NCBI GenBank assembly: GCA_008632985.1
Contig: QPGO01000085.1
Span: forward strand, 62,001-126,000
DNA length: 64,000 bases
Direction of reading: 5' to 3'
Origin: Psammoneis japonica
Lineage: Eukaryota
Shown: positions 9,901 to 56,492 of the stretch, one piece after another
Numbering within the stretch: the first letter of the stretch is position 1
Layout of the letters: each line of letters starts with the position of its first letter
Translations under genes and position numbers: made by a program
Notes under the pieces: model-generated
Database searches by the model: none
What the model was told of the DNA's origin: nothing
Seen by the model: only the letters and a program-made list of their open reading frames with translations

Positions 9901-10121
9901 TCTCTCCGATCACCTACCTCACCACCTGCTAAACAAACAACTCCACACGGTTGCGTTGCCATCGCTCGCCCACTTGCCGGCACTTGCTCACTTCCCGACC
10001 CCCGCCGTCTGTCCGCACTGCCGCCCCCCCTTCGTCTCTTCCGCCCACTCTGCCGGTGCCGACCATGGGCCCTCGCCTCAGCCTTACCCCTTCGCGAAAT
10101 CCGACTTGTTGACCACGACGA

Positions 10122-15570: not shown

Positions 15571-15809
15571 AATCTGCAGCAGCTGCCCGCCAGAAACCCC
15601 TGCATGTGTGTTTCTGCGAACACGCTCTCCTTTTGCCCAGCTTGCCCTTGGATTCTTCATTCTTGGCAATTGTCAGAGTGGCTCTCTGGACAGCCCCATC
15701 TCAGTTTCTGTTTGCACCATTTTCTTTCCCAAGATCAGTGCATTTGTTGGACTTGCTCAGCAGCTGTTCACCAGACGAACAATGGGCATCTTTGTGTGTC
15801 AAATGCATC

Positions 15810-16915
15810 CTGATGTGCACTGGTGTGGTCTCTGGTGGGCCCCAGGGGACACTCCAAAACTGTTTCTGAACATTGCAAAGTTGATGTTGTGGGCTTGTAA
15901 CTCCTTGTCACTTTTCCCCCAATGGGAGGCAGCAGTCTTGAGTGCCCAAACTCCAGAGTGAGAGGATCCCATGATGATGCCAACCCAACAACTGCCAGCA
16001 GCATGGGATGCTGGCAGGCAGTGTGTGGTGAACCCCAGGCAACACTTAAGAGCTGTGGCCAGCTGGGCATTGCAAGGTTGATCTTGTGGTGTGTGGCCCC
16101 ATGTCACCTTTTCTCTGACAGGAGGCAGCAGCCTTGAGTTTCCCAACTCCACGGCAAGGACTCCATTGTGTGGCACTTGCTGACCTGACACAGCCAGCTG
16201 CAAGCTGAGGGCACTGGTGGTGTCTGGTGGGCCCTGGATGTAACTTCAAGAACTGTGGTTGAGCATTGAAAGGTTTGTCTTTTGGCGTTGTGTGGCCCCA
16301 TGTCACCTTGTTCCCAACAGGAGCAGACTTGAGCTTCTTGGCTCCAGAGCAAAAGGGGATCCCATGATGGCACCAATCAACCTGACAAACTGCCAGCAGA
16401 GGGCATTGGCGGTCTTCAGACGAGGACCTCAGGCAAGACTTCAAGAGCTGTTGGTGGGCATTGCAAGGTTGATCTTGAAGTGTTGTGGCCCCATGCACCA
16501 TGTTTTGCCCAACAGCAGCAGACTTGAACCTCCAAACTCCAGAGCAAAATGACCCCATGACAGTGCCAACCAACCCAACAACAGCAAACTGAGGACCCTT
16601 GCAGTGTCTGGTGCTCCCCACCAGGTGACACTTTGTGCTGGGCATTGCAGTTGACCTTGTGGCATTGTGGCCCCATGCAACCTTGTTCCCCACAGCAGCA
16701 GACTTGAAGCCAGGGTGAAACGAACCCATGACAGTGCCAACCAACCTGACAACTGCCGGCAGAGGGCATTGGTGGTTTTCAGCAGAGAACCTCAGATGAG
16801 ACCACAAGAACTGTTGTTGGGAATTGCAAGGTTGGTCTTGAAGTGTTGTGGCCCCATGTCACCTTGTTCTCCCAACAGCAGCAAACTTGAGTTTCTGAAC
16901 TCCACTGGAGTTGCT
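15810..16915. repeat. Degenerate tandem array, about 6 units of 180-196 bp
   Basis: The motif ggcattgcaaggttgatcttg..tgtggccccatg recurs at about 15870, 16067, 16262, 16457, 16641 and 16821. Confidence 0.85.
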
Positions 16916-18314
16916 GATTCAAAGGTTTGATGGCCTGAGTGGCAGTGGGTGAGTGAAGCTGCACAAAGCAATGCACTTGGAATGCCAGAAATGCAAATTT
17001 GTTTTGCAGTGGCAAATGGCTTGAGGAAGAGAATGGCAAAATTTGGAGGGCATTTTTTCAACAAGTTTCTCTTCATTGAAAGCAATGAAGAACTGCAATG
17101 AGTGCTCAAGCTGCCCTCTGTTTTGTCCTGATGTTAAGTTCAAGAAAGAGGATCTTGTGGGGGGATCATTTGGGGTGCAAGTCAAAATGTGTGGCTGAGC
17201 TTTGTTGGTTGCAAACCCCACAATTTTGGAGGCTCACAGCCTTGCCAAGCTTTCCTTCCCCAATCTTCATGGCAAATCTTGTTGATGATGCAGTTGTTGC
17301 AATGTGGCATCAATTGTCTGCACTGACCTTTGCACAAAGTCTTCATGTCAAACAAGTTTTCTGTTGCCAAAGCCTTGGTTGCAACTGCCACTCATTCAGT
17401 CTGGGTCCTGGAGTCAGGCGCATGGAGAGCACTCACCCTTCTCTCTGAAAAGCAAATTGATGCCAGCACTGGGACAAGCATGACATCTGAACACCCCTCC
17501 CCCCTCTGTGATCTTCTGTGAGAGACAAAACTGGTGCGCTGTGATCTGGGTTGATGTTGGAATTTGTCAAATTGCAGTGTTGTGATGACAAGGTCAAATT
17601 GGTCAATGAGCATTTGTGGCAACAGGAAGCATGAGTGGTGACAGGGGCCAAAGAACAACAATGTGGTCATTTTCCAGGGCTGCTTGACAAGATGAATCAG
17701 GCTCCAGCGTGGTGCAAATTGACATTGGGTGGAAGGAAATGATTCAAGTTTGCAGCTGTGTTGTCTGTCAAAAGGGGGTGGTTCAATGGGAAGTTTGTTT
17801 TGAGAGAAGAGCTTTTTGTTGTTGTCAATCAGCACTTTGTCCTTGTTGCATGGCACACAAAAATGACAAAATGGTTTTTGATGGGGGTGCACCACCACCA
17901 TGCAAAAAAAGGATGAGTGTCTGAGTTGTGTGGAGCCCAATGCGCAACAAAGAGACAAGTGCAGCAGAAACACCAAAAAATGAGGTGGGCAATTGAGCTG
18001 AAGCTGTTCCAAACAAAAAATTGTTCAACTCTGAACAAGGTGCTGGGCCACAAAACAAAACATGGCAACTCTGCCCATGCTGACAACTGGAAAAATCAAG
18101 TGTCAACCTTGCACGACAATTTTGGCAATGCCAGATTTGAGATTTGTGGCTGAAAATGAGCCAGTGTCAGAACATTGCTTGTTCACTGCAGCTGCAGTTG
18201 CACCCACCTTGGGTGATTTTGAAATGTTGTGCCACCTGTGAAGACAGTGCAGCCACAAGTGCACAATTTTGATTCTTGATGGATCTTCCTGTCAAGAGCA
18301 AAAACATCATGTCA

Positions 18315-19325
18315 CAGACAAATGTGGCAAGGACTCAAGGGGAAAATCCTGGATCCAGTCCAGGGGGTGATTCAAGCCATGCCAGGCACCAGCTTGGCAA
18401 TGGAGAAGGTGTCATGGCATTGCACATTGCAGGATCATCCTCCCATTGAACAAATCACCACATCAAGGGATTTTTCTCATTGCCCCCCTCAACCTCAACC
18501 CCCAGATCAAAATCCAATTGCTCCCCCTTGCTCACAACATTGGCAACTCCCTTGGCTGCTCATGTGACACATGGTGAGCACATCAAGACCAAACTTTGAC
18601 AGCTCTTGGCTGGTCCAGTCTTGCTGGTGGAGGGGCTCCCATCTCAACAAAGTGGTGGGAAAGTGAAAAGAGGCTGAAAAGGCCTCTGAAGGTGCCAGCA
18701 CAAATGCTCGATGAAAGAACCCTTGCACCCATGGGACATGGAGAAGGTTTGGGTTTGCTGCAAATCCAAAGGACAGGATTGGCATCCCAAGAAACAGGCA
18801 GTCATGCTTTGGCATTTTGTCTCCATCTTGAGTTCTTGGGCCCTGTGAGAGAACTTGTTTGCCATCATGCATGTTGCCCAGCACCACACTCAGGCGTGGT
18901 CAACAACCAACACCACTGAGAAAGTGTCCAATGCCAAAAAGGCCAAATGCTGTTGAGAGTCTTGCAATCAGTGGCATTTGGTGGATGCACACAAGTCACA
19001 CCAGGGGGTTGGGTGTCACTCAACCCTGCCGTCTGCAGGGTCTTGCCACACAAATGTGGCAACTGCTCAAAGGGAAAACCCTGGATCTGGTCCAGGGGGT
19101 GATCTGAGCCACACTGGCTTGGCAATGGAAAGGATGCTGCAGCACCGCGCATTGTGGAATTGACCCATTGAACAAATCACCACATGTCCATGGATTCTTC
19201 TCAGTGCACCCTCAATGCCCAGATCAAATCCAGTCATCCCCCCTTGCTTGTGTCACTGGCAACTCCCCCCAGCTGCTCAGATGGTGTGCAAGCATGCTCC
19301 CTTTCATTGAGAGCTCTTGCCAGCA
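18315..19325. repeat. Two diverged direct copies of an approximately 280-bp segment (about 18315-18610 and 19050-19325)
   Basis: Both copies share acaaatgtggcaa..gggaaaa..ctggatc..gtccagggggtgat, cccattgaacaaatcaccacat and cccagatcaaa. Confidence 0.8.
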
Positions 19326-20314
19326 GTGGCTGCATGTGAAGGAAATGAAATGGACTCATTAGAGTGCACGCAACTTTGGAGCAGTGTGACATGGGAGGCC
19401 AACTCTTGAGTCTGCATCCTGCAGGTGTGCCTCAAAAATGGTTTCAGGAGCAGAGAATGTCTGCACTGTGCTGCTTCATTGGGCAAGAGGCCACTTCAAG
19501 CCCACTTCTCCTTCTTGACCAACAGTGGCTGATCCTGTCAATGTCATCAGTGTCAGTCTTTTCTGTGATGGCATGCAAGTCAGCCAAAACCACCACAACA
19601 AATGACCACAGAAAATGTCATTTTGGACTTTCTCAATGTCCACAGGTGAGGAAGCATCCAACTGAAAAACAATGGGTGCAAATCAAAAATTCTGTGCAAA
19701 ACCTGATGAAGCAAAGTGTTGAGGGCAGCAGAGGCAAGATGTCTCCCCCAGCAATCAGAGATGGCCAGCCCACTGACTCTCTCCAGTCTGTCATGGCTTG
19801 CCACCACCTTGTTGAGCCACAGCCACATCTGAGTTCCCAAGCTGGTCTTGTTGACACACAAGAAGAGATGTTGACACTCCCTGTGCTCTCCTTTGACCTT
19901 TCTGAGAAGTGCAAGGATGATGTGATCCTTGTGAAAGTTCAAGTGTGCTGTGTGCTTGGAGACCTGCCAAATCCAACAGAGCTTCCGGCCCACAAAATGA
20001 CAAGATGCAGTTTGCAGCAAAGTGGAGACCAGCCATAAGCCATGCATGAGCCAAAGCCAGAGAGCTTGGAGTGTTTGCCTTGTTTGCCACTCATGATGGC
20101 AGATGACTTGTCAACTCCACCAAGACAGCATGCTCGGGTCACCAATTTTGGCCCATCTGGAAAACATTTACCCCTTCACAGTCGCAACTTTTATTTCCAC
20201 GAGGCAATGGTTTTTGGAATTTAAAAAGGGCCGTAAATAAAAGAAAAAGAAGTGTTGTGTGCCATGTTTGCGTTGCGGCAGATTCCCTGTTTTGGTTTCA
20301 AAGGAGGTGGTAAA

Positions 20315-21668
20315 TCAGGTGCTTGTACCGGGAGGGTCCCACCTGTAGTAGGGATCGTAGGCCCCACTTGGCAGGCCCATACCTGGCATTCCCCCATTTC
20401 CATTTCTACGCCTATAGGAGCCCTTAGGCGTTGTCATCGGTGTGGTTTCAGGTGTGTCAACCGGTGTCGCCAGTCGCATCAAAGCCTCTGATATCTGATC
20501 AACCACAGAAGGCGATTCCCAGACATCAATTACAGGGCTTGCTGCTGGAAGCGGAAGTGGCGTCGGCATGCGTTGCAAGTGCGGTGCCGGTTCATTGCCG
20601 GGATTCAATACCTTCGTCTCATCGACTAACAACTTGGGCAACTTGGTAGGAGGGTTCTCGTCAGCCGCTCCTTCCTTGCCCTTTTCTCCGGCAGGACTCT
20701 TTCTAGCCCTCTTGCGCTTTAGGTGCGGTTGTAGGACCTCCCACTCATTCTTCAGCCTTTCGCTGACTTTCTTTGTGTCCTCCAACTCCTCGAGGACCGA
20801 TAAAGTTTGACGATACGCTTCGCCTCTTTCTTGAGATACCGGATCGTCTTTAACAGTCCAACTCGTCAAACGATCCTCAGCCTTTGAAATCAAATCACTC
20901 ACTGAAAACTTCAGTTTGTTCTTTCTGACATAGTCCCTGATGTCATCGTACGTTGAAGGTGCAAAAAGCAGTCCTGTATCATTCTCATACAGCACGTGGT
21001 GCTTGTTCTTGTCGCCCGGCCTGACCTTGGTAAGGAATCGAGGTAAATCATAGTGTCCCTTCACTTCTTTCAAGAACTTAATAAAACGATAATATATTTC
21101 AGAAGCTTCCAAGTTGCTGAGTTCATCATCATCTGGCTTTCTTTGGGCAAATTCCCGCCACCACGACATTACGTTGTTCTTTTCTTTACGATTTCCGTTT
21201 CCGTTGTATTTAAGAAGAACACAATCGTGTGGAAGCCTGTACATGTAGGGTTGTCTATACACTGGGGGTGGCAGTGGCGCGTCGAAGGCATTCGATGTTG
21301 GAATAACATCTGAGGGAGCGGTGACCTGGTGGGTGCCGTTATTTCTTCGGTGGGTTTTTCTTCCACAGTATTCCATTATTTCCATTGACTCGCAAGCTGT
21401 TATGATTCGAAAAAAGAACAAACGTGTCAGCAGTGATCAATAGTTTAGCAAACACACGAAATTTTAATGACCCATTTGGTACTATTTTCTTACCTTTTCT
21501 GAAGTTTGATCCCCCAAAAGAGACTTGTAGTTTTGTGACTTTGTCTTCGAGCGTTTTCGTTCTCTTCTGCAAATCAGCAATTATTTCGTCCTTTCGCTCA
21601 TTCTCGTTTTTCAGAATGACAATATCTCTTTCAAGGATTTCGATCCTTAACTGATCAACACCCCTCAT
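20315..21668 (-). CDS. Unknown 418-aa protein, two exons (intron 21397..21493), N-terminal coiled coil, Pro-rich tail; probably belongs to a repeat or mobile family
   Basis: Removing a GTAAG..ACAG intron joins ORF 21339..21668 in frame to 20315..21421 (..SNFRK-A-CESMEIM..). A decayed paralog lies 5 kb away. Confidence 0.65.
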
Positions 21669-36181: not shown

Positions 36182-37862
36182 ATGAGTGGTAAGTCTCTCT
36201 CTCGTACGTTCCGGCTGCTCGTTCTATTCCTCTCCGTTGTTTGCTCATTCGGTCGCTCTTTCGCTCCTTTCGCTCGTTCTGCTTACAGAGAAATCAGACT
36301 TGCACAAAGCTCTCAGCATCTTCAAGATGTTCTACTCGACCGTTCTCCTAGTCTTCTCGCTGGTGATCGTGATGGGCTTGATCTTCACGAGGCAGACGGC
36401 GTGGTCCGAGCAATACCATCCTGCTCTTGCCTTTATTATCCTTTGGGTGATGTTGATTTGGCTCTCGTTCGTCGAGGGCGGACAGGCTTCGTTGGTTGGT
36501 CTTCACCCGATTGACCGTGAGCTCTACAAGGACACCCACCCGATCGCTTACAAGGGCAATGCCATGACCCAAAAGGGAGACAACCTCGATCGCTACCTTA
36601 TGGGCCGTCAGTTCATGGTCATCTTTATCGTTTTCCTCATCAACAAGTGTGGAGCCCCTATCGACGGTGCTGAACTCTGGGGATTGCCCAAGTGGATTGT
36701 CGACATCTTCCTTGTCACCGGGTTCGCCATGATCCTCTTTACGGCACAGGTCGGGCAGTTGCAGTCCCAGGTCAACGCATCGCTCTGTATGCTTGACTAC
36801 TTCAACGACTATGCCAACCTCTTCACGCTCTACACTGCCAGGGCGATTGAGTTCACTGGTCTCATGCACTTCTCCTACTTTATCCAGATTTGTGTTGGAT
36901 ACCTTGCTGGCAAGCCCATCGAGTCCAAGGAGCCTCCGCGCAGCACCGGTCAATCTCTCTTCTTCTGGTTCCGTGTCCTTGTCTCGTTTGTCGTCCTCGG
37001 CTTTGCTTTGGCAGTCACCCTATCTGCTCTTTTCCAAGGACAAACCACCATGTGGGGTAGTGTTCCCGAGGCAGTTGCCGTGATTCTTTTTTTCCTCCTC
37101 ATGTCTGTCGTTGGTATGCTCGAAGGTATGCAGATTGCCTTCTTTGCCGTCGCCAAGCTTACCAAGGACGAGCGTGGAAAAGCCAAGTGTGCCAAGATGA
37201 CTTGCGATCTCCTCTACAAGGGCAGGGGACACAACCTTCCCAATTTCATGATTGGCCGTCAGCTCAGTGTCGTGTCTTGCTTCTTTATCATCTCTCGTGT
37301 CACCACTGTCTCGATGGACGAGGGCAAGGGCAACCTGTGGGGTGTTAGCGATGGACTCCAGGAACTCTTTGAAACTGGTTTCCTTGGTGCCACCATTACT
37401 ACCATTCTCGGATCCATCTCGTGGCAGCTTGTCGCGTCTGCCTTTCCCATTGCCTTTTTGTCAAACCCCATCACCTACCTGTTCCTCCGCATTTGTCTAT
37501 TTTTGGAGGCTACCGGTATTTGCTCTGGAGCTTGGTTCCTTGCCAAGATTGACAAGAAGGTCCGTGGCTTCAAGCGCGACGAAGTTTACATTGGCACTGC
37601 CGAGGAACGTGCCGCGCGCAAGGGCGGAAAGGAAGACGAAGAGGAAAGTGTCGAGGCTGGCCATTTGTACCCTGCTGTTCCACTCTTGCCCAAGGACGTG
37701 GAATACAATGACCTTTCTCTCGAACAAATTGAAGAGCTCGAGAGCGAGATTGATGAACACATGAAGGAACTTCAGGAGCGCAAGGCAGGTTTGACACTGC
37801 AGAAGCAAAAGCTGATGGATCCTCAGGGTTCAGAGGACACTTCTGAAGTTGGAGAACCCTAG
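36182..37862 (+). CDS. SIT: Diatom silicon (silicic acid) transporter; intron 36189..36288
   Basis: Four GXQ motifs (EGGQ, MGRQ, EGMQ, IGRQ), CMLD motif, about 10 TM helices and a C-terminal coiled coil. ATG at 36182 splices (GTAAGT..TTACAG) in frame to give MSEKSDLHKALS. Confidence 0.96.
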
Positions 37863-40648: not shown

Positions 40649-41194
40649 ATTTTTTCTAATCGACTGTGAGCTCGAAAACGGTAGAACGATTAACTCTCTG
40701 TAGCAAAGTTAGGATCTCCTGCAAGTCAGTAATCAGCAATAGTTGTTGTTGCTGTCGCTATTTTTTATTCAGTGTTGCTTTGTCGCGTTAGCGTTTGCAT
40801 TCAAACGAAAAATGTGGCGAACCTTCCGTTTGAAGGTGGTGCGATTGGCAGGAGGTTGTGTAGATTCTACGTGGCTTTTGTACCATGATGATTGAAGGTT
40901 GGCGTTTCTCGAAGATTCGTTTTGGGCGCACGTCAGCGCGATTATCATACAATGTCAAACTTTTCATGACGTGTGATATTTTGATTGGCCCATTCTAAAA
41001 ATAGCATTCCATATAGGCAAAGATGTATAATACGAATGTCCCTCATTTTTCTTCCTCCGATCTCTTGCTTGCCGATCTAGCTCCTTGTGCCCTACCGTAT
41101 GCCCTACTCTCTAGTATCTCGATTCGAACCTCAATACCGGTACCTTCGTCCACCATGGCCCAACAACAACGATCTTGAGAGTTGTTTGCTAGTC

Positions 41195-42134
41195 ATGAAA
41201 TTGTCGTCGCAATGCATCTTTTGACTTTTGTTATCGTGACGCTCATTGTTCTCACGAGACAGAGTAATGCTTTGAGCACCGCGTCCGGTTTGCTGACCGT
41301 CAAGACTTGGGCCAAAAATGTGGCGGTGGGATACCAACAGCGTGTCGAGGCCGATCCACAATTTCCAACCAAATCGGCGACCGAACTCATCCTGGCGGTA
41401 TCGACGCAATTTGCGGCTGAAGTCAATCGTCGAGGTGTATCGCGCATGCTTCCAGAGCTGGATTTTGTAATTCCCGGCATTCTAACAGCCATGGTGAGTA
41501 TGGTACATGACGAAAACAACACGCAATTGGTGAGTCAAACTTTGGCGCGACAAAAAGACATATTCTAATTCTGGATGCATTTCCTACTCTATTTCGATTA
41601 TAGGCTGGCAAGTATTATAGCATGTGGCGCGTAGCTCCGACAAAATCAAACGACAACAACGTGAATGCCAAAGACATGACTCTGGGCGGAATGGCTGTTC
41701 CGACCAATGCGTTTCAACCAACTCTTCTAGATGGAACCACACGTCCGACACTGGTTCAAAGACTTGGATCCTTTGTGGTTCCCGTGCCCAGTCTGTTTCA
41801 GGCTGGATTTCTAGCGAGTACGGCTGGGTACGGATCAACCGCCGTCATGATTGCTGTGCGCACTCTCGTCATGCCGTCCTATGAGGCTGCCACTCGGAAT
41901 GTGAATGTGTTGTATGCGAGCATCTACACGGGTTTCTTCGTTGCCATTGTGAGCAATATCCGTTATCAGTTGTTACAAGGCATCATTGAACCAAAAATCA
42001 TTGACAAAATCAAAGACCGCAGTCCGGCGCTATATTCCGTCCTCTTGTTTGCGGTGCGGACAGCCAACGGGCTGTTGGGAGCCAACCTTGCAATCATGGG
42101 CATGAGATGGTTGGGCCTTCAACAAGTAAAATAA
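41195..42134 (+). CDS. RETICULATA-related (DUF3411) plastid membrane protein; intron 41494..41603; start approximate
   Basis: RVEADPQFPTK..E, AEVNRRG..ELDFV, VPTNAFQ and SNIRYQLLQG motifs, with an in-frame splice to AGKYYSMWRVAPT. Confidence 0.8.
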
Positions 42135-43315: not shown

Positions 43316-43583
43316 TGTCGCTGTGTTTTTGGGATTTCCTTTTGCTACATGCGTTGGAAGCGTCGAACGACACAGGCTTCTGTGCTTTTGAGACCATCTG
43401 CCTGTCCGCCCGCCCGCCCGCCCAAAAAAATCCGTCTGTCCATTGCATTGCTTCATGTCTCCACGCTGTGTCTGCAATTAGCATGGAGCTTCACGCAACA
43501 AGTGCGTCATCACCACACATCTCAAGTCTGATCCTCGGCACCTCATTGTCACACATGAATGTTTGCAGCACAACTCACACCTT

Positions 43584-46500
43584 GGTCTGCCAGCTGCAGC
43601 TCATTTTTCCATGTGTTGTTGCGTTTTTTGCCACCCCTTTGATTTGTTGTCTGCTTCACCTTTTGGGCACCAGGCAGCTGTGCTTTGTCAGGATGAGAAG
43701 AGCGACAAAGGACTGCTTCCTGCCAGGCTTGGAGGCATGTTGACTTCTTGCTGCGCTTGGATGCATGTTGGCGGATGTGGCGCCACATCCATGTTGCTTT
43801 TGCTTTGCACACCAGGCGCCTGTGCTCTCATTGCAGAAAGATGCAGAGGTGTTTGCAGCATTTTTCTGTGTCTTCTCTTCTTGCAACCCTCACAGACTTG
43901 AAAGAGCTTTTGTCAATGATGACCATTCTCCCAGTCTTGTTTGCCATCAGTCTCAGCACTCAGCCTCCATGTTGAGAGAAGGGGGTGGTGCAAAAGCAGC
44001 AAAGGTGGTTTTTTGCAGCATCGCATCTGTTGGCACACTTGCCATGTGGAAAGAGATAACCCACAGGCTTGGCAATCTTGTGCTCTGGTGACCACATGGT
44101 GACAAGCACAGAGCTGGCAATGGCTGGGAGCTTGTGGCACATTCAAGGGCAACATCAGGGAGGCAGGAGGGAGAGGTGTGCTCTTTTGCATTGTCGCGCC
44201 ATTGCTGGCTGTTTGCGCAGCTCCAGGTGGGCACGCAGGTTGCATGTGGAACATGCAAAAATCACATGGAGAAGCAGTTGGTTGCCAGAATTAAGCTGTG
44301 CAATGACCTGCAGGAGCAGCCATGGCCCAACAAATGCAGCAAGTTTGAGAGGTTGTTTGGTCATGAGATTTTTCACCAAAGTGCATTTTTTGACTTGTTT
44401 GTTTTTGTGGTGCTCATTGTTCTCTCAAGATGGAGCAGAAAAATGGAGCCCAACTTCCACATTTCATGCATCAAGCTTTTGGCTAGAAATGCCAGAGCAA
44501 TGCCCCAAACATGTGACAGTGAGACAGCCACACATTTGGGAGCAATGTGTCCAACCCACCAGCTGTGTGTGAATGTCTTGCCCACCCATCACAACCCACC
44601 CCACACATTTGGCACCTCTTGCCATCCCTGGACACACCTGTCATTTTCTGTGTCATGGCATCAAGCTTTTTGACACATTCGACAAATTCCTGGCTGAAAC
44701 TTGCTGGGTTAGATGAGTTTGTTCCTTTGCACCTCACTTGGCAATTGCTCTTTTAGAATTTCACCAAAGAGTTTGATGTCATGCCCCTCAAGCTTTTTCA
44801 GATTAAATGTTGCAACTGCTTGGGCAAGGCAGCAATGCACATTGCTTCAAGCTCATCTCTGATTGCCTCCAATGCAGCAAGCAAGCAGTTTTGCAGTGTG
44901 AGCCTGCCTTCTTGCAGCCTCAACAAACTGAGGCAAACTTGTGAGAAATGCAGTGTTGGAGTTTTGCTTTTGTTTTGACAACTCACAGTTTGCAAAACAC
45001 TGCACCAAGCCATTTCCAGTTTTTCACATGTGGGGGGCAGATTGCTTGTGGTGACATTGCCCATCATCACACCCACACCTTCAAATTGCCAAACTCATGT
45101 TGGATGGGGGGGGGGGGGGCAACAGCAGAAGATGCCAAGCAGCAGAATGCTGCCTCTTGAAAAGCTTGTGCAACATTTGGCTCACATCAAGTTGAGCAAA
45201 GGTGGCATCTGGTTGCACCTGTGTTGTTCATCTGAGCAATTGCAGCAAGACCAGCCAACTCCAAGGAAGTGTGAGCTGTGCCTGCAATGTGCAAGACTTG
45301 AGAGCCCCTGGAATGGAAATGACAGTGGGGCCACAAAGAGCAAGAGAGCAGACTTCTGAAGTTGTTGCAGTGCCAGAAGGATCTGAAGCTGCAAATGCCA
45401 TTGTGGTGCATGCTGGACTGCAACATTGGTGCAAGAGATGGACCAGCTGCAACACTGGTGCAAGAGATGGACCGCCAAGCCTTTTTCTGGTTGGAGCACA
45501 TGTGCTGGCATCAGCTGGCGCTGCTTGAATTTTGTCATTTTTTGGAGTTGAGTTGTAGCAAGCTGCAACACATCATTTGGGGCTGAGCAACACAGTGATG
45601 AGCCCAGTGGTCACATTTGGCTCAGCTCAAAAGACAAGAAACCTTCAAGATGCCTCAGCAAAGACATGGCATTCTGGGGCAGACAGGCTTTTTGGGCTTT
45701 TTGTTTTTCTTCTAGCAAGCTGGCTCTGCTCAAGGTGTTTGTTCATTTTCTTGCTTGCTTGCATTGCAGCTGACACAACTGATGTTGTCTCCATCATGGA
45801 ACAAAACATGCATGGTGCTGCAGAGTGGTGCCTCTCTGTTGGCATGGGCAGGGTGTGGACAGACCAGGGTGCATCAGCCTGCTCTCTGTGTGGCTCTTGT
45901 TTGAGTGCTGGCTCAAAGGCATTTGTTCATTTTCTCACTTGCTTGCATTGCAGCTAACAGCACAACTGATGCCATCTCCAACATGGAACAAAATGTGCAT
46001 GAATGCTGCAGAGCAGTGCCTCTCTGTTGGCAACAAGGGTTGTGTGTGGACAGACCAGGGTGCATCAGCCTGCTTTCTGTGTGGTTCCTGTTGAGTGCCA
46101 GCTCATCATCTTGTGAAAACTGAGAATGACAAGTCTGTTTCAGGGCTGCTCTTGTCAAGTGTGGTTTGCTGCATCACCACAATTTCCTTTCACATTCATG
46201 TTTCCAAGGAAACCCAAAAAATTGTGCCATGTGCTCGCCTTCCAACCCAAGTGCAGGGTGCACTTTCTGGCTGTGCTGACCAACAAGAAATTTCATTTTT
46301 GAAATCTTAAATGGCAACATGATGAGAACAGCAGTCAAGAGGCAGTTGTTTGAAAAAAAGTCTCCCACGTGCTGTGAAATGGTGATTGTGGCACAAGAAT
46401 GGTGCGAGGGGGGTGCTGGGCATGGAGGGCAATTCCAGGCCATGTGGCAATGTGGTGAGCCACTGCACTCAACAAGAGTGACCCTCAACAGAGCTGCAGT

Positions 46501-49500
46501 TTCCTGAGCATGGCACACATCATGTCCATTGTCTGGAGATCAAGAAGAGCAACTTTGGTGTTGCTCAAGAGGAGGCCTGACATGAGAAGATCTTGAGGCC
46601 TCCTGCAGATCTCAAAAAAAGCCCATGGTTCATTGTCAAAACAAAGAAAAAGCCTCAAGACATGAGCCTGGTCAGACAAGGGGTGCAGGAGCAATGGCCC
46701 TGCTTTGAGCTAGAGCAAGAGAAGGAACTTAGTTTCAGCGCAATGTGGAGCAGCACATGCAGACAATTTTTCCATTTTTCTGAAGTTTGTTTGCACCGTG
46801 CATTGACCACACACAATGTTTGAAATTTGTGTCACCTTTTTTCAGTGCAGTGCCCATGTCTGAGGTTGTTGTTTGTTGCCCATGACATCAAACCCTCTGT
46901 GATGCAACAAAACAGCATGGAGAGGCAAACACCTGATGAGGGCATGGAGACTGGGGGTGACTGCTTTGTGAGGACAGAAAAAATGGTTCCATGGTCAGAG
47001 CCACAGCATTTTGTTCACAGTCTGCAGGGTGCTGCTTCTCATTTTGTTCAGTGCAAGTGCAGTGGGCCCAATGCTGTTGGTGACTTCAGCAAAAGGCAGG
47101 TTGGCCGGTTTTGCACCCTCTCTCATCTCAGGCCATTTTGACCTCCCTGCTCCTCCAAAGGCAGTCAGAACACACAAAAATTGCTGTTGAGTTTGTCACA
47201 TCTAAACCAGCGTGTGTGGTCATTGATGCATTTCATGGGCCCAGTTTCAGCACACCTCATGAGCTCACTTTGTGCACCACAACAAGACAGAGAACAACCT
47301 TTGAACACCCCAGGTGTCTGTTTTGGCAAGTGGCACACATTTTGCCATTGCTTTTGCAGCACATGCCACATCTGCCCCATGCTCTGGCTGTTGTGACTGG
47401 CTCCACTTCTGCTGTTGTGAAGTTGAAAGATGTTGTGAAAAAATGACCACACACTGCTGCAGTGACTTGTGCAAAAAGCACACATCTTGCTCCAAGCAGA
47501 GTTTTTTGAGAATGGCCCAGTTCTGCATGAAATTGCTTTTGCACATCTGCTGGCATGAAGGTTTGCATCACTGGGTCCAGTGCACTCTTTGTGTGATCCA
47601 AAACATGTGCTGCCACAAATTTGTCACATTGCAAACTTGCAGTGATGGCCAACTTTTCTTTTGCAACAACTCTGGGAGCTCACGTTGATCTGTCCATCCA
47701 CAAGGACAACAAAACAAGAATTTTTCTCTCAAGATCAGCCACCCTTCTTTCTGCTGGGGGGTTGCACCTCCTCTTTTTCTCAACAAACTGCCCAAAAATG
47801 TGTGCTTTCCAGCACAGAGCAGGATGGCCTTGCTTGTGATGGGGGGTGCACTCATGTTCTTGTGGTGAGCAAATCTTTTTTGATGGAGTGAGAGGCACAA
47901 CCCTTCAGCACAGAGCACACATGCAAGAAAATTGTGCAAAATGCAAGCAGAAATCTGTTGACTTTTCAGCTGCAAGTCTTCTGTTTGAGAAAAAGCCAAT
48001 GTTTTGTTTCTGTCAAAAGGCTGTCAACCCAGAAGGATTTTTTCAATGAAAGAGTGTGCATCTCATGTGCAAAACTGAGTGGTCAAATTTAGACGTGTTC
48101 TGGCCCTGCCAGCAGGTGGTGGGGCTGCACGTGACATCAGGCCAGCAGAGTTCTGCATGCAAGCTCCATGATGAAATTGTCAGGCAATGCACAACACACA
48201 GGGGTGATTGCCAAGAGAAGAAGAGGCAATTTTGTGAGTGAATGGACTCCTCCAGCACACTTGAAGCACATCATTTCCATTTTGCCTGGGTGTGTTCTGC
48301 GGACATTGAAGAACACAGCAAATGTGCTGCAGAAGCAAAAGGCCTTTGGCTGTGCAAAACAGGGAGCCCAAAACAGTTTTGTTTTGAAGATCATGCATGG
48401 AAATGCATGTGCATGACATGTTGCACATGACCAAGAAACTCTTGTGTCACAATGCAGCAGTGCAAGGTCCCACCCAGAGCTGTGGTGCATCTTTTGCAGC
48501 TTTTGCTGCTCTTTTGCACAAGCACCACCCACTGGCAACCCCTGTGTGCATTTCCATGCATGCTCTTGTGCTGATGTTGCCCTTTTCAGATGGCATTTTG
48601 CCAGGTCCTCCGACACCCTTTTGGCCCCTTCCACCGTTGGTGCACCCTCATTTTTCACCATGATGTGCAACAAGTTTTTCAGTGGAAAAAGACTGGCGTC
48701 AACACCTCATGGTTTGCATGCTTGTCGTCTCATTTGGCAATTTTTTGCAGATTCACAGAAAATCTGGCACAAATTCTGTGTGCTTCAGAAATGTCCACCA
48801 AAGATCATGTCATTTCAAAGTCATCACTCCACAAGTGTTCCCACACAAGCACTCTTCTGTGCAAGCACCCACTGGCAACCCCTGTGTGTGTTTCCACGCG
48901 TGCTCTTGTGCTGATGTTGCCCTTTTCAGATGGCATTTTGCTGGGTCCCTCAACAACCTTTTGGCCCCTTCTGCCATTGGTGCACCCTCATTTCACCATG
49001 ATGTGCAACAATTTCCAGTGGAAAAAGACTGGCATTGACGCCACATGGTCCACATGCTTGTTGTCTTGTTTGGCATTTTTTTGCGGATTTGGTGCATTTT
49101 TTCTACACAGAATCTAGTGCAAATTCCACACACTTCAGAAATGACCACCAACGACCATTGCATCTTTGATGTGATCAACTTCCATCTGCGCCTGCAAGCC
49201 CCCAACAATTTCTTTTGCTCCTGCTTGCTGCTCAAGTTCTTCACCTCATGTGGTGAAAAAGCACTCCCTGTTGTGGCACCTGTGAGTGTTTGTTTGGACA
49301 AACCATCAGCGTTGCCTGACGACCATGTCCATCCACTGTGTGGATTGGCATTTCTGTGCAAGACTCAGCATCAACTCCATGTGAGAACCACATTTCTTCT
49401 GACAACCTTCTCGTCACATCACCAAGGCTTCCTGTTTCACACCTGCAAGTCCCGAACACTCCCTTTTCCACTTGCTGGCCCACCAAGACAACTGCTCCAA

Positions 49501-50940
49501 GCAGTGAACCACTGCATGCTTTTTGTTTTGGTGCGCGCAATTGTGAAATTTGGCCAGTCTTTGTTGAAGACAAGACCCACCCTCAGAAGCAAAGTTTTTC
49601 TCCCAGAGTTTGTGCTGACTTTGCTTGAATTCTCTGCTTGATGCAATTGTCCTTTGCTGTGGCAGCTTGGGTGCATTGAATCCTCTAAAAAAAAGAAAGC
49701 AATGACCTCATTCTTGTGCAATTTCTCCTTGACCTGTTGTCTCCGGTGTGCATTGCTGCAAAGTGGTGCATTGACCGGCTGACTGCATGAGCTTCTGCTG
49801 CACCCCTCGCAGGGTGCACTGGAAGCATGGGTTGGCCAGTGCCAGTGTTTCTGGGCAAAGGTGCAACAGCACTTAAAATCAGGTTTGAGTTTTTTGCAGC
49901 TTTTGCTGGCTCAGCAGAAGGGTCTCACTTTGCAGGCAACCTGTGACAAGCGCTGGAGCATCCTTTGCCAAAAAATGCCATGCAAAAGCACACCAAAAAC
50001 TTGCTCACAATCTGGTGGTCATGAAAAACATGTGTGAAATTCCAGGGAGCTCATGGTTCATTCAACAACAGGTGGCGCTGATGGGGCTGCTTCTGCACAA
50101 ATGCACAGCCACCTTCTCAGAGTGTCTTGTTGCTTTGTTGGTCCTGTGATTCAGAGCAGGGACAGATGGAGCCAGGCTTTGTTGTTGTTCAGGTGCAAGC
50201 GCTGTGTTCAGTGAACTCAATTTCATGTGCCAAAGTCAACGGTTTTCTTCTCTCGACAACATTTGACATTGTTGACAATGCTGTGATGATCCATGTTGTG
50301 CATTGCAGCCTCAGAGTTGTGCCAGTCTTTTGGGCCCTAAATTCCCCAAACCCACCCTGTGTCAATTGCGGCACTGCCAGGTCCCTGGGGAATGTTCATT
50401 TGCAGGAATGAAAATTTCCCATGCCAACTTGACTTCACACTTGCACTGCACATGACTTGAGGCAAGGACTTGGTTTGATGGGTCATTCTTGCTGCAAACT
50501 CAAGCTCATGTGCGGGGGCAGCATGACAATTTTTGATGCATGCGTGTCAAGAAAAATGCCAAGTTGGCTGCCTTGCATGACCAGCAAGCAACAAAATGTT
50601 GGAGATGGGGAGTCAAGCCAAGTGCTGACTGGGTTGAGACTCCTGGCACAAGATCCAGTTTGAGATGATTTGACAAGCTGTGAGGAGAACCTCCAAAGCC
50701 CAGGAGCTCTCCCAATGTCTGGCACATTGTTGGCTGACATGCATGTGTCAGAGGAGGCATCCTCAACATGAAGCACAAGCAGCAAAAGCCACCCACTCTT
50801 CCCCTGCATGGGTGCATTCCAGCCAGCATTGTTTCCATGCAGGGTGTCTTAGGATCACCTTTGTCACCTCCTGCTGTTGTCTTGTTCTCTTGTGCTTGCT
50901 GCCACGATGCAGCAGCCAATGTTGGTGCAAGAGCCATCTC
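43584..50940. repeat. CpG/TpA-depleted decayed repeat block 3, with internal duplications (about 45745-45910/45925-46100 and 48520-48810/48860-49140)
   Basis: Hand count for 44041-44640 gives 3 TpA and 4 CpG in 600 nt. The duplicated segments share long matches such as cccactggcaacccctgtgtg..gctcttgtgctgatgttgcccttttcagatggcattttg. Confidence 0.85.
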
Positions 50941-50963
50941 AAGAAGGCGTTGCGGGCAAGAAC

Positions 50964-51689
50964 GAAAGTGGTATGACGACGTTGTTCAGAGCCTCACAAG
51001 TGTGATTTGGGTCACATCAAAACATTTTTGACTGGTGCCTCACTCACGAAGCTTTGCAGCCCAGCCGCAGCTCTCGTAGATGCAAGTGAGATCATTACCG
51101 TATTCGATATATCCTATTAAAAATCCTACTCTAGGACACCTTATGCTGTAGCTAGTCTTGACAATTACCGCGCAAAGCTTGATCCATTCGCTTCATGAGA
51201 TCCGGTCGAGAGCTTCTTGTCGCAACGCCAAACGGTGATATTCCGTCGTTATCTTTAAGATTCTCGTCTGCACCGTGCTGCACAAGCTCGTCAAATACCT
51301 TTTNTGCGGCATGATCAACAATGGCTTGGAACAGTCTCTCTGGCTCTCGAAATAAAGAAAGTGGCAAGACGATGTTCAGAGCCTCACAAGTGTGATTGGG
51401 TCCATCAAAACATTTTTGACTAGTGCCTCACTCACGAAGCTTTGCAGCCAGCCGCAGCTCTCGTAGATGCAAGTGAGATCATTACCGTATTCGATATATC
51501 CTATTAAAATCCTACTCTAGGACACCTTATGCTGTAGCTAGTCTTGACAATTACCGCGCAAAGCTTGATCCATTCGCTTCATGAGATCCGGTCGAGAGCT
51601 TCTTGTCGCAACGCCAAACGGTGATATTCCGTCGTTATCTTTAAGATTCTCGTCTGCACCGTGCTGCACAAGCTCGTCAAATACCTTTT
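50964..51689. repeat. Near-identical duplication of about 335 bp (50964-51303 and 51357-51689), with an N at 51304 in the intervening ~50 bp; probable assembly junction
   Basis: Both copies carry the ankyrin gene 3' end and flank, and the only N I saw is at 51304. Confidence 0.75.
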
Positions 51690-52425
51690 CCCACGAGCAA
51701 CATTGTTTCCACGGATAAGCAAAGCTGTCGTTGTAAGGAGCGGCGAAACGCCGTCTTTGTCTTGTATGTTGACTTCTGCCTTTTTGTCGGACAACAAGAC
51801 ATGAGCAAGCTCATGATGTCCCGTACGAGCACACCAATGCAAAGCCGATTTGCCTTCATCGTCCTTGCATTACATCGACCCTGGCCTGAATTAACTTTTG
51901 GGCAATGCGTGCATCTTTCTCATAATCCTGTTTTACTGCTTGGCCTGGCGGAATGGGGTCCGCTAGAATGATCAGTGGGGTCGCACCCCTGCTCGTTGCG
52001 ATCTTCGCATCGGCGTTATGCTCCAACAAGAGCTCAATGATTTCCTCATATCGGTTATTCATGGCAAGGATAAGGGGTGTCTGGCCTAAACCATCCTGCA
52101 CATTCACTTCCGCTCCCGCCTCCAATAGCACCTTGACGATCTTTGCACGGCCAGCCGCACAGGCATAATGCAAGGCACGCATGTTGCTTGGATTATTATT
52201 AATGCTGGCTGCAAATTCCAGAGCACATCCATGGTGCAATAGTTCCTTGACAATAGGAACTAAATCGTCTTCTGGTGCTGTGCTAAAGGCCGCCGCAATG
52301 ATGAGGCCAGTGGCACCTGGACCGTTGTCGCGCCCAAAATTCACGTCGCCGCCATCAGCCAAAAAGCGCCTGATTCCATCCAGATCGGCTTCCAAGACCA
52401 ACTGTAGCAAATTAACTTTAGACAT
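51538..52425 (-). CDS. Ankyrin-repeat protein (frameshifts near 51860 and 51700)
   Basis: ALHYACAAGRAKIVKVLLEAGAEVN, GQTPLILA, GATPL, DKDGVSPL and DNDGISPF ankyrin motifs. Confidence 0.85.
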
Positions 52426-52699
52426 GTTGGTGTAGTTTGTGTTTTAAGGTCGCAAGAAGTAAGTGTCGAAGAATAGAACGTCACGTCACATACAAACGCA
52501 GAGCAACTCGTTTTTTGTTTTTTCATCCTGCGGTTCAACTTGAAACTGTCTTGCCTGTCTGCGCATGCCATGGCGGGCGGGCGTCATGACGTCTGGCGAC
52601 TGGCCGGCCGGGCAGTGCTGTGGTTTTGGCTTACAGTAGAAGGAGCACATGTCACAAGAGACAGCTCTCAGCGCACTTCCCTCTCAGTCTCAGACCACT

Positions 52700-55600
52700 C
52701 TATGTACATGGATGCTAGCATCTTACAATCATGGTGAAGATTGGGCCTCACAAGACCGAGGAGGAGAGGGAAACGAGAAACGAGAGACGTGGGAAGGCGA
52801 GCCGGGTGTGGAGGCTGGCGTCGACACTGCAGACCAGCAACAAGAGGGGAAAGCCCTGTGTGCACAAACCTTTCAAGTGGTCCAAGTCTGCTCCCAATGG
52901 TCTGTCAAGGATCTGATTGTGACAAACAAGCAACAGGACAATGATCTTGTTGCGCCTGCAGCACTGGGTGTGTCAGAACATCACGCTGCTGTTGCCCTGT
53001 GGTCCTCACGCTGATTGTGGGAGCCATCCTTTCAGTGACTGAGTCCTGTGTCAACACCCATGAGCTTGATTTGTGCATCAACAAGGGGGTGCTTGTTCTT
53101 GCTGGTGTTCTGTCTTGTTGACTGTGGGCAGAGCCCCGCGGGCTTTTGTGTCTCCTCTGTTGCTGCTGTGCAGTGTGTGCTCTGCACATGTTGCACCCTT
53201 CATGGGAGGATGGAGCAAGGTGGAGCTTTCAACAGTGGTGCACACAATGATCCTCATGTTTTGTTGCAACATCTCAATGACCACTTGGGCCATGCTGAGG
53301 ATGTGCTCTTGACACTGCAAAAGTGGGTGTTTGTTCAGCAGCCTTGGCAAAAAGAGGTGCTTCTGGTGCAATGAAAGGAGGCCCAGAAGCACAAAAAGGA
53401 AGAGCACCAAAAACAAGGAGGAGCTGCAACAGAAAGTGAAACAAGATCTGGAAAGAGGATTGACACTCAAGAGACTTGCCAAAGCTGTTGCCCAGCAGCT
53501 TTTTTTGTGAGATTTCATGGTGGTGCTGCAATCATCTCTCATGCATGGATTTGCTGAGAAAGCAGGCTTCAGTTGTTGTGTGCCACCAGATGCCACCATC
53601 CTGTGGGAAGTTGGGAGGCCTGCCAGCATTTCATGGCAGTGAGTGGCAGAGTGGATGCAGAGGGGTTCAGAGTGCTGCGCCAAGGAACCAACCAAAGAAT
53701 GTGTGCAGCAACTGACACAACAGCCTGCAGGACAAGTCAAAGGGAGTGCAACATGCTCCTGGATGAAGGAACACAGAGTGTTGGCCTGCAGCATGACAGG
53801 TGACTTTTTCTCTGCTGTGCCATGGGCAGCAGGCCAGCAGCCACACTTGGCACACCAGGGCCAAAGCTTTCCCTCAACCATCTTGCTTGTTGGCTCGCTG
53901 TTCTCAGGTGCCTTCTTTTTCCAATTGGTTGTTGAGCAGCCATTTCCATCATTTTGCTGACCACATCTGTCATCATGGCAGCCAATTCAAGTGCCTCTTG
54001 TGAGAGAACCAAAAGAAGTCAGACATGAGCTGCCCATTGAGACCATGTTCAAAACTGCAGGCAATGCCAAGTGCAGCACATGCAAAGCTGGGACTTGCCT
54101 GTGACCTGCTTCTCTGCCTGTGCCTCAGGTTGATGCAACCACTTTTTGAGAGCAACAACTGCTGGGGTCCCACCAAGCATGCAACAGACTTCAAGGCAGC
54201 ACCCAAAAGGTTTGGGCTGATGGTCCAGACCACCCCTGATGGCCTTGCTGTGCTCTTGACCCAGCCCATGCTGGCAGCACCAGTGAGCTCAGGTCTTCTT
54301 GATGAAGTGGGGGGCAGCACAAGCAGCTCACCTTCTTGGGTGTGAGTCACAACTTAGATGACAAAAAGAGCCAAGAGAAGCAGATGGAACCAAAGGTTGG
54401 GTGAGTTGCTGGTGGGTGGAGAGATGGGTGCAAATCCACCAATGTCAAGAGGGAGACAGAGCAGGTTGAACATGGTGCCAGAAGCACCACGAATGTGAGC
54501 TGCTCTTGCCACAGGAGAAGCCCCTTTTCTTGTGGCAATGGTGCAGATGCATCATGTGATGCTGAAAATCTTCCTTTTCACTGTGCATGGTGGGCCAAAG
54601 AGCAAAGGCAAGCAAGCTTGACAGGTCTTGAGCTGCTTGCGCATGACATGACTCAACTTGTCCGTCACAACATCGATTGCTGAACGGGCCATCAAGGTGG
54701 TCATGTCTGTGCACCCACCATGATGCCATCCATTGGCCAGATGTGCCATTGGCCAATGCTGGCACTCTGGCCTTTCACTGCAAGCCATGCTGTTGCTTTG
54801 CACAGTGCAAAACCCAATTCCTCTGCTGGTTTGAGTGTCCCAGGACTTGTTTGCAAAGACACATTGGCAGCACTTTGACTTCCAAGATTGTCGTGTTGGG
54901 GAGATCCAATTTGTGTGCTCCAAAAGAAAGTGATTGCTGGTGGTGTGTGGTTTTGCCACACACATGCATCAGAGGAGAGGCACCCACCCTCAACATGAAG
55001 CACAAGTGACCAAAGCCACACCCTTGTTCCCCTCCATGTGGTGCAAGTGACCACACTGTAGACCACACGGTTTGGTTGCCAAACTTGAACTCCACAAGGG
55101 AGAAAAGGGAAAAGAAAACCCTCAGCTTGAGCCAGTGTTGCCTGACAAATGTCAATTTGCCCAATGATTTGTGGCACTCCAAACACCAAAAATTCCCATT
55201 GGCACAGACTTGTGCTGCCCCAAATGGACCAACTGCTCAAGCACCCACCAACTTGGCAAAATTCTCAATGGGCTTGGTCAAAACATCTTGCTCAGCTTTA
55301 CAGTCAAAGGGCACCCACTTTGTGATCTGTCATGAAAGGCTCTTGCTTGACAAATGTTGGCAAGCTGCTGAAAAAGTCCAGCTGGTGTGGGGCAAACAAG
55401 TGCTCCTTTCTGACACAGAGGATGGTCTTGCCCATGTTGGAGCTCATCCACACATGCACACAAAACCATTTTTGATGAAGAAAGTGCACAACCCCAACAC
55501 AAAGCATGCGCAAAAAACAAAAATCACATGAAACATCTGCTCTCCTCAAGTGCTTTTGTTTTGCACACAACTGGGGCAAGTTTGGGATGAAAAGCCAAGA

Positions 55601-56230
55601 GGAAAAATGGATGTGAGAGCTGTGCAGCTGGCTGACAAAGCTGTGAGCATCCCTTTTGCCTTCCATTTTGACAAATTTGGAAGCTCATCTCTGTTGGTGG
55701 TTGCACTGCAAGTGATTGCTGGAGAAATTCAAGAGCGTTGTTTTCCATCTGACAAGCAAGTGAGGCTCACAGTCGTGCTTCTACAACAGCAATTTTTTCT
55801 GATTTCTGATGATGCTCTTGCTTTTTGTGCCTCTCCTGCCACTGTCACAGCTTTGTGTGGCCAGCCAGACAAGATCTCTTGCACCTGTGTGTGTGTGCGT
55901 GGGGGGGGGCGAGCTTGCTGCTGCTGCTGCTGACAAACTCTGTGCAAGGATGTTGCTTGCTTTTTCCTCACAGTTTTGTAAAAAAATTATGTCCCACTGA
56001 GCACTTTCTTCTCCAATTGCCTGTGCATGCTGCAAGTTTCTTGTTGCCATTTGTGTGCATCCGAGACCCTCCTGGCAAAGCAGCGCACTTCTCTTTTGTC
56101 TTTTGCAGCCTCTGCCTGGTGCCAGTCAGTGCCAAGACACTTTAAAGAATGGCACACCATGCAGTGCAAGCAGGACAGTTTTATCACAGAACAAGCACCC
56201 TCACCTTGTCTCTTTGTTGTCCATTTTGGG
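52700..56230 (-). mobile_element. CpG/TpA-depleted block 4, containing a decayed Ty1/copia-like gag remnant
   Basis: Minus-strand translation near 53810-53925 gives NWKKKAPENSEPTSKMVEGKLWPWCAKCGCWPAAHGTAE, resembling the zinc-knuckle region of diatom copia gag. The dinucleotide skew matches the other blocks. LTRs were not identified. Confidence 0.6.
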
Positions 56231-56492
56231 TTTACTTTTCCATGCGTTGTGCGTTGTGCGTTGTGGACGGAATTTGCAATGGATTCGCGATTGATGAGAA
56301 CCCAGTCTGTGCGGCCTTCCTTCAACTCGTGATTGGCGAGAGGCGCGTGACAACGTTGTAGACTACTCGTCACGTTTCTGCGACCTCTTGAGTCCCGTGA
56401 GCGAATGCGAACGCATGCAACGAGAACCCTAAAATGAAGTCCGTTTCGAGTGTCGACTCGCCGATCCCATAAAATCACAAACTAACAAAGCC

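Follow-up and report, generated by a model that had tools for sequence, protein, structure and literature searches.

The 64,000-nt stretch of the diatom Psammoneis japonica analyzed here (assembly GCA_008632985.1, contig QPGO01000085.1, positions 62,001 to 126,000 of the forward strand; referred to as the window) carries a silicon transporter gene and other genes and, beside them, four blocks of DNA, A to D, that are depleted in the dinucleotides TA and CG (Table 1). The silicon transporter is encoded by the open reading frame (ORF) 36186-37862 (+), which matches the corresponding Pfam family with an E value of 2e-209, and further ORFs of the window match the Pfam families BspA-type leucine-rich repeat and DUF285. 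By its gene content, the window most likely represents nuclear DNA. The limits of the blocks were drawn from the positions of all TA and CG in the window. Together, the blocks comprise 17.6 kb and leave 46.4 kb of non-block DNA; the range 43584-56230, which had been singled out in a first-pass annotation, consists of blocks C and D and the ordinary DNA separating them.

Table 1. Blocks, repeats, related sequence pairs and variable residual TA sites in the window (R, purine; Y, pyrimidine)
Feature	Position	Strand	Remarks
Block A	8506-9914		TA/CG-depleted domain; 1 residual TA (8851, TTAA)
Block B	14965-20168		TA/CG-depleted domain; 6 residual TA (YTAR 3, RTAR 3)
Dead hypermutated paralogue of ORF 20315-21421	15077-15591	-	TA of the intact copy reads CA or TG here
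About six diverged ~196-bp units in tandem	15833-16960	+	In block B; units differ by CA/TG alternations
Intact unmutated ORF, 368 aa	20315-21421	-	Reference state; no Pfam family
Block C	43480-50971		TA/CG-depleted domain; 20 residual TA (YTAR 17, RTAR 2, YTAY 1)
Block C stretch related to unmutated 41152-41348	44319-44519	+	82% identity with purine/pyrimidine scoring; second block/normal pair
Residual CTAG	45713-45714		CTGG in run X1 contigs
Two tandem ~185-bp copies, 87% identical	45732-46105	+	6 CA/TG alternations, 1 TA-versus-TG site
Residual CTAA	45955-45956		CTGA in run X1 contigs
Residual TTAG	48090-48091		TCAG in run X1 contigs
Tandem ~343-bp repeat	48466-49655	+	In block C
Block D	52725-56232		TA/CG-depleted domain; 8 residual TA (YTAR 2, RTAR 2, YTAY 4)

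Counted per kilobase, TA and CG are nearly gone from the four blocks and TG and CA are doubled. With both strands pooled, the observed/expected ratio (o/e) of TA was 0.03 in the blocks versus 0.55 in the rest of the window, that of CG was 0.13 versus 0.99, and that of CA/TG was 1.83 versus 1.19. AA/TT showed no depletion (1.26 versus 1.17), the remaining dinucleotides differed by at most about 25%, and the G+C content was 49.4% in the blocks and 47% outside. The GC dinucleotide was raised in the pooled blocks, with an o/e of 1.26 compared to 1.03 outside. The block edges are sharp, with about 2 TA per kb inside and 28 to 47 per kb within 300 bp outside, and at these edges the domains cut across unrelated sequence.

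The 35 TA that remain in the blocks show a strong bias in their flanking bases. They comprise 23 YTAR, 7 RTAR, 5 YTAY and no RTAY, whereas the 1,806 TA of non-block DNA comprise 280 YTAR, 498 RTAR, 445 YTAY and 583 RTAY, corresponding to 15.5% YTAR, 52% mixed sites (RTAR or YTAY) and 32% RTAY. In ordinary DNA no class is rarer than YTAR (12.8% within ORFs and 18.1% outside them), and among the block survivors none is commoner. This bias is real and lies far beyond chance: relative to all non-block TA, the binomial p value was 2.9e-11 for at least 23 of 35 YTAR and 1.2e-6 for 0 of 35 RTAY (chi-square p 4.6e-15); relative to non-block DNA outside ORFs (YTAR 18.1%, RTAY 29.9%), the values were 7e-10 and 4e-6, and relative to a first-order expectation from the composition of the blocks themselves they were 1.4e-4 and 1.3e-3. 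It persisted when only the 30 survivors at least 250 bp inside the block edges were counted (21 YTAR, 6 RTAR, 3 YTAY, 0 RTAY), and the block parts of 43584-56230 alone hold 28 survivors (19 YTAR, 4 RTAR, 5 YTAY, 0 RTAY). Five low-TA genic stretches with 154 TA showed no flank-class bias (p 0.79). In the 300-bp flanks of the blocks, YTAR, mixed and RTAY sites numbered 20/50/20 compared to 220/775/474, a marginal YTAR shift (p 0.057) that is confounded by composition and was not used.

The first-pass annotation had counted 3 TA and 4 CG in 44041-44640, which is exact (TA at 44057, 44292, and 44484; CG at 44195, 44197, 44216, and 44234). It had also assigned, by eye, about two thirds of some 30 to 35 residual TA in its blocks 2 to 4 to YTAR and none to RTAY; the actual figures are 22 YTAR among 34, and no RTAY was found among the 35 survivors of all blocks. 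The survivors are not spread evenly over the flank classes, and ordinary intergenic DNA does not share the YTAR bias. A separate observation concerns the BspA-type leucine-rich-repeat gene at 5526-6618 (Pfam E value 1e-154), which contains tandem coding repeats of 69/138/276 bp: its TA o/e is just 0.32 to 0.37, yet the flank classes of its TA are normal.

The class frequencies were described by a kinetic model in which the adenine of each strand is hit independently at a rate that depends on the base 3′ of it. With the tetranucleotide make-up of the rest of the window, the blocks would be expected to contain 106 YTAR, 358 mixed and 221 RTAY sites, of which 22%, 3.4% and less than 0.5%, respectively, survived. 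A half-site fit with two rates gave 23.8/10.3/0.8 YTAR/mixed/RTAY sites, compared to 23/12/0 observed, and was superior to a one-rate model (likelihood-ratio test, p 1.6e-13), with a dose ratio of 3.7 for a pyrimidine relative to a purine after the A (profile confidence interval [CI] 2.7 to 5.4). In a fit with four rates, which was good (deviance 7.4), the cumulative dose rose from 0.55 for A and 0.99 for G in the +1 position to 2.53 (2.0 to 3.3) for C and 3.22 (2.4 to 4.3) for T. The block/non-block ratios of the trinucleotides, 0.12 for TAA, 0.09 for TAG, 0.02 for TAC and 0.01 for TAT, give the depletion order TAT ~ TAC > TAG > TAA, and among the NA dinucleotides strong loss is confined to TA. 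The flank effect is thus that of two independent half-sites acting multiplicatively, and a preference of the mutator for a pyrimidine 3′ of the target A is well supported. YTAR is slowed about 4 times rather than spared; that it is not immune follows from the 23 sites observed where about 106 are expected and from three YTAR sites for which a public run has TG or CA (see below).

At the +2 position of the survivors, G was neutral (×1.02), T was underrepresented (×0.30) and A overrepresented (×1.86); when the +1 base was a purine, T was found in 6 and A in 28 of 58 cases (p 0.011), which we regard as a tentative effect. In the pooled blocks, A before T was scarce also where no T preceded it (block/non-block ratios of 0.69 for AAT and 0.61 for GAT), and CAT was the lowest of the CAN set. 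The shortage of AAT, GAT and CAT could mean that A-T steps are hit weakly off target, or it could simply reflect ancestral composition.

As the survivor classes cannot separate a rule of the type "A then Y" from one of the type "R-T then A," the products of mutation were used. A TAY→TGY rule predicts that RTAR becomes RCAR and YTAY becomes YTGY, whereas the mirror rule RTA→RTG predicts RTGR and YCAY. In a mass balance per kb (blocks minus rest), 22.1 sites of the form RxxY were lost and 22.5 gained, and 17.1 of the form YxxR were lost and 14.7 gained. In the mixed class, 19.8 TA and 25.7 CG were lost, and the gain consisted of 31.4 RCAR/YTGY and 12.2 RTGR/YCAY, so that RCAR/YTGY made up a share of 0.72 (bootstrap CI 0.65 to 0.79). 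CpG decay yields these products as well, and its split was determined directly: aligned mixed-class CG sites, taken from two block/unmutated pairs and nine repeat pairs, split 12:13 between the product classes (CI 0.28 to 0.69), and the asymmetry must therefore stem from TA. With CG shares of 0.63 to 0.5, a fraction of 0.77 to 0.93 of the TA sites would have gone TAY→TGY, and the survivor rates predict 0.79.

Direct comparison with unmutated copies pointed in the same direction. Block/normal pairs were sought by aligning the blocks to the window with bases reduced to purine or pyrimidine, where matches of up to 77% were taken as noise, and two pairs were credible. At 17 aligned TA of the unmutated copies (20515-21065 and 41152-41348), the block reads CA in 11 cases, TG in 4, a transversion in 2 and TA in none. 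All seven RTAR sites read RCAR in the block, and five of the six RTAY sites read TG or CA; one YTAY site was usable, and it was resolved opposite to TAY→TGY. When all aligned pairs were considered, 8 of 11 mixed-class TA sites followed the rule (p 5e-4 against the mirror model, which predicts 0.22). Taken together with the mass balance, the orientation TAY→TGY, in which the A with a 3′ pyrimidine changes, is the best supported one.

The repeats within the blocks indicate when and on which molecule the changes arose. Nine within-block pairs of repeat copies, delimited by hand since Tandem Repeats Finder missed these diverged repeats, contained 322 transitions and 107 transversions in 1,780 aligned nt, and at 64 positions CA in one copy stands opposite TG in its partner, meaning that an ancestral TA or CG was resolved separately after duplication. 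The same follows for the ~196-bp units of block B from the alternations among them, and the mutation thus postdates local duplication. Runs of TG or CA along the blocks were not detected by a runs test (z −2.0 to +1.6), and the local TG-CA imbalance was mostly below 0.1 with a maximum of 0.24, which is lower than in genes.

A dead copy of the ORF 20315-21421, fully stripped of TA, lies at the left end of block B and the intact copy just beyond its right edge, 5.4 kb apart and in the same orientation. The two are at present 65 to 72% identical, and where the intact protein has Tyr, the dead copy has His, Cys or Trp. Of these two copies, 20315-21421 escaped the mutator. The alternations between repeat copies, the dead paralogue, the strand balance and the sharp edges all tell against a strand-specific process and against retrotransposition of transcripts that had been edited as RNA; the mutation is one of DNA in place, on both strands.

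The segment 48137-50004, which harbors the ~343-bp tandem repeat of block C, had word depths of 4437, 868, 854 and 2056 in run X1, while the depth elsewhere was about 58, and it contains many internal joints; it therefore belongs to a high-copy family. This region retains more CG (11 to 14 per kb) than the remaining block C. The blocks appear to be silent DNA that, judged from the tandem arrays, this one high-depth segment and the one dead paralogue, is at least partly derived from repeats, although in this window they cannot be called transposons. Homologues of ORF 20315-21421 (−) and of the block ORF 53081-53986 (−) were not found within the length ranges searched.

The loss of CpG looks like a process separate from the loss of TA, both by context and by footprint. 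Among the CpG contexts, GCG was lost slowly (dose 0.43) and TCG fastest (1.36). CG survivors varied across 1-kb sub-blocks (p 4e-5), which TA survivors did not (p 0.59), and CG-rich sub-blocks were not TA-rich. The left margins of blocks B, C and D (14965-15240, 43480-43820, and 52725-52825) have a TA-free zone that starts 100 to 350 bp ahead of the CG-poor zone, as in 14981-15237, which contains 11 CG and no TA; this offset indicates two depletions with different footprints. The CpG overlay probably reflects deamination of methylated cytosine.

Run X1 was the sole public run found to contain the stretch (share 0.73); it consists of contigs and may come from the source sample or represent another allele. 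The contigs differed from the window at 114 positions, 40 of which were listed, and 25 of the listed ones fall in block C. Among these 25, 12 are CG versus TG or CA and 3 are residual TA versus TG or CA (Table 1). Among the differences listed, at least 3 of the 20 residual TA of block C differ from run X1, which exceeds the block average (Poisson p 4e-4). Whichever way these changes went, they hint that residual YTAR sites are still mutable. At 54931-54932 the window reads TG and the run X1 contig CA (AGTGAT versus AGCAAT), and the two seem to be one ancestral TA or CG that was resolved oppositely in two versions.

Two further observations concern the surroundings of blocks C and D. Directly outside the left edge of block C, at 43385-43430, a (CGCC)n tract is succeeded by a run of A. 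Between the two blocks, a single N is present at 51304, the depth is lower at 50939-51405, and a contig joint of run X1 skips 365 bases (50941-51307); a gap in the assembly or a difference in structure between the blocks may lie behind this anomaly.

Taken together, we consider it likely that an in-place mutator has converted TA to TG or CA in silent blocks at a rate that depends on the base after the A. Such a mutator would act on resident DNA and change A:T to G:C at the A of 5′-TA-3′ on either strand. It would be fast where T or C follows the target A; with G or A in that place, the rate would be about 3 to 6 times lower. As TA is self-complementary, each site would offer two target adenines. 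RTAY would have two fast adenines and is gone, RTAR and YTAY would have a fast and a slow one, and YTAR, which makes up two thirds of the remaining TA, would have two slow ones. The chemistry may be deamination of adenine to hypoxanthine by a polynucleotide deaminase that reads 5′-T-A-Y-3′ and may be recruited to heterochromatin.

The first-pass annotation had proposed TAY→TGY on either strand as the preferred target, which is favored by the product asymmetry and by the 8 of 11 aligned sites. Its scheme that RTAY is hit from both strands agrees with the independent-hit fit, whereas its claim that YTAR is hit from neither does not, given the 23 sites found for about 106 expected. It had further suggested a context-dependent fit and a comparison with DNA polymerase eta; the flank rule fits and the WA signature of this polymerase is not seen. 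Its preference for an enzyme over GC-biased gene conversion holds in so far as the AA/TT and G+C pattern does not fit conversion; an enzyme of any named family would be no more than a candidate for the agent.

Several points weigh against our interpretation. The survivors number only 35, and the doses and the mass balance assume that the blocks started with the tetranucleotide make-up of the remaining window. The share of YTAR differs between blocks C (17 of 20) and D (2 of 8; Fisher p 0.005); five of the eight survivors of block D sit in its final 450 bp, and the contrast looks like the result of a lower mutation dose at the right end of block D, but this explanation is post hoc. The direct product count of 8:3 is by itself compatible with an even split (p 0.11), and among repeat pairs with a TA kept in one copy, one site fits the rule and two oppose it. 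If survivors are partly new TA derived from CA or TG, the dose ratio would be larger, about 7 according to a hand calculation, and the numbers given above would be off. The differences between the window and run X1, 40 of 114 of which were listed, may have arisen in either direction. Finally, the blocks contain 152 stop-to-stop ORFs of at least 70 aa, and a Pfam search with 150 of them (all except 9464-9676 [+] and 9704-9913 [−]) gave no match at the cut-off and no transposon or viral domain; the weak matches below the cut-off (DUF5052, Sdh_cyt, and DUF7255) included nothing transposon-like.

Neurospora and other fungi have a process termed repeat-induced point mutation (RIP), by which C is converted to T at CpA and TpA is created. 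The blocks resemble RIP-affected DNA in that a transition mutator with a dinucleotide context acts on DNA in bounded, repeat-rich domains and kills gene copies. The chemical direction is the opposite, as here TpA is destroyed, CpA and TpG are gained, and A:T becomes G:C. RIP mutates all copies of a duplicated sequence. In the window, 15077-15591 was mutated and 20315-21421 was left untouched, at a present-day identity that may differ from the one at the time of mutation.

A closer likeness was found in the chlorarachniophyte Bigelowiella natans (Mettrop et al., bioRxiv 10.64898/2026.01.13.699255). In B. natans, the de novo mutations in two integrated viral regions were almost exclusively A→G and T→C, were all located at TpA and gave TpG or CpA. 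The hypermutated DNA is integrated giant-virus and virophage DNA, an adenine deaminase was proposed as the agent, and clusters poor in TpA and rich in CpA+TpG mark past activity. The chemistry corresponds to that in the window, where 15 of 17 aligned TA read TG or CA and the mass balance closes, and so do the bounded regions beside normal DNA. The differences are the host lineage and the far deeper depletion in the diatom. A term search of the main text of the preprint returned no flank rule, context analysis or coupled CpG loss. A full-text literature search turned up neither an account of mutation that erases TpA in diatoms nor one of the flank rule. A metagenome scan with the silicon transporter yielded 10 loci (about 47 kb), none of them with TA-poor stretches, and is uninformative on other diatoms.

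Known adenine deaminases match the neighbor preference only in part. TadA of Escherichia coli edits the motif TACG in a loop and does not accept TAT (PMC5630033). The resemblance to TadA put forward in the first-pass annotation extends to the T before and the C after the edited A, by which Tyr TAC becomes Cys TGC; it fails in that TAT was lost at least as strongly as TAC in the blocks, in that G at +2 was neutral and in that the substrate is DNA. For Tad2/Tad3 mRNA editing in Fusarium, 86% of the edited A are preceded by U and the +1 preference is A~G>U>C, while human ADARs prefer U>A>C>G at −1 and, in the case of both ADAR and ADARB1, G first at +1 (PMC4817773). These editors share with the blocks the strong preference for U/T before the A, but UAG and UAA are their best sites, whereas TAG and TAA are the slowest here. 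ADAT2 of amphioxus, when it acts on DNA in E. coli, deaminates A with the motif GAA and C with the motif TCG (PMC10354150). TCG is also the CpG context that was lost fastest in the blocks; the A motif, in contrast, is not TA, and TCA and TCT are undepleted in the blocks (block/non-block ratios of 1.21 and 1.12), with TCC being lower (0.74).

At the sequence level, A→G on one strand looks the same as T→C on the opposite one, which makes TAY→TGY and RTA→RCA two descriptions of a single event. The same pattern would be left if, for example, T were modified or excised and then misrepaired, giving T→C at 5′-R-T-A-3′ without any adenine deaminase. We know of no thymine-directed pathway that gives a clean T→C change at one dinucleotide, and 15 of the 17 aligned TA sites are pure transitions to TG or CA, with 2 transversions; the B. 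natans study likewise proposes adenine deamination. We judge this explanation to be unlikely. The survivor classes of 23/12/0 alone would be fitted equally well by the mirror rule R-T-A→R-T-G or by a reading of the RTAY duplex as a whole, with both flanks speeding both strands equally. The products make this very unlikely, since the mirror rule predicts RTGR from RTAR, whereas RCAR/YTGY dominated the gain and 8 of 11 aligned sites went the opposite way (p 5e-4), and since the symmetric variant requires a CG share of about 0.83 instead of the 12:13 split observed (p 7e-5). Another explanation is that the residual TA are new, created by ordinary C→T and G→A changes at CA and TG, and that their bias reflects a steady state of creation and removal. 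The potential sources are nearly even (1061 for RTAR, 983 for RTAY, 915 for YTAR, and 1061 for YTAY), and the even density of TA, but not CG, over the sub-blocks is expected near a plateau. Even creation by itself cannot yield 23:12:0, however, and TAY must still be removed faster than TAR, so that the size of the ratio would be altered but not the rule; we find this account doubtful, though it deserves serious weight.

RNA-level A-to-I editing of transposon transcripts by ADAR- or ADAT-like enzymes, followed by reverse transcription, is suggested by the preference of known editors for U before the edited A (PMC4817773). We regard it as extremely unlikely, as adjoining tandem copies differ at the 64 CA/TG alternations, the dead copy of a host-like ORF was also mutated, both strands were equally hit, the edges are sharp across unrelated sequence, and ADAR and fungal ADAT favor G or A/G after the A (PMC4817773), the reverse of what the blocks show. 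Explanations without any preference of a mutator, namely, YTAR-rich ancestors, selection for YTAR, GC-biased conversion or WA errors of polymerase eta, deserve scarcely any credence. No support was found for them; YTAR is the rarest class elsewhere, within as well as outside ORFs, the gain of RTGY/RCAY (22.5 per kb) matches the expected loss of RTAY plus RCGY (22.1 per kb), and five of six RTAY of the unmutated copies are TG or CA in the block. The specificity of the motif, the undepleted AA/TT and the nearly constant G+C content do not fit GC-biased conversion or polymerase eta, whose WA signature, A→G at AA as well as TA, is not seen in the AA/TT ratios.

A mutator that acts in place on TA and senses the base after the A remains our preferred interpretation, and the neighbor rule is the most direct clue to an unknown mutator that can be obtained from sequence data alone. 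The rule discriminates between candidate enzymes, as it speaks against ADAR-like and fungal ADAT-like specificity and only half fits TadA, and it can be checked on the 231 published de novo mutations of B. natans. It would also allow mutated domains to be dated or graded, survivors of the YTAR type only indicating a high dose, with the decay of CpG in the same domains running on a separate clock. With somewhat less than even confidence, we suggest that TAY may be the fingerprint of an uncharacterized DNA adenine deaminase with a neighbor preference unlike that of ADAR, eukaryotic ADAT2/3 or TadA, which diatoms direct to silent repeats to defend the genome heritably in a mirror image of RIP, and that together with Bigelowiella it may mark a widespread A-to-G system in stramenopile, alveolate and rhizarian algae. 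If confirmed, an adenine-directed DNA mutator would give diatoms, a major group of ocean algae, a genome defence of a new kind and might provide a natural source of DNA adenine editors.

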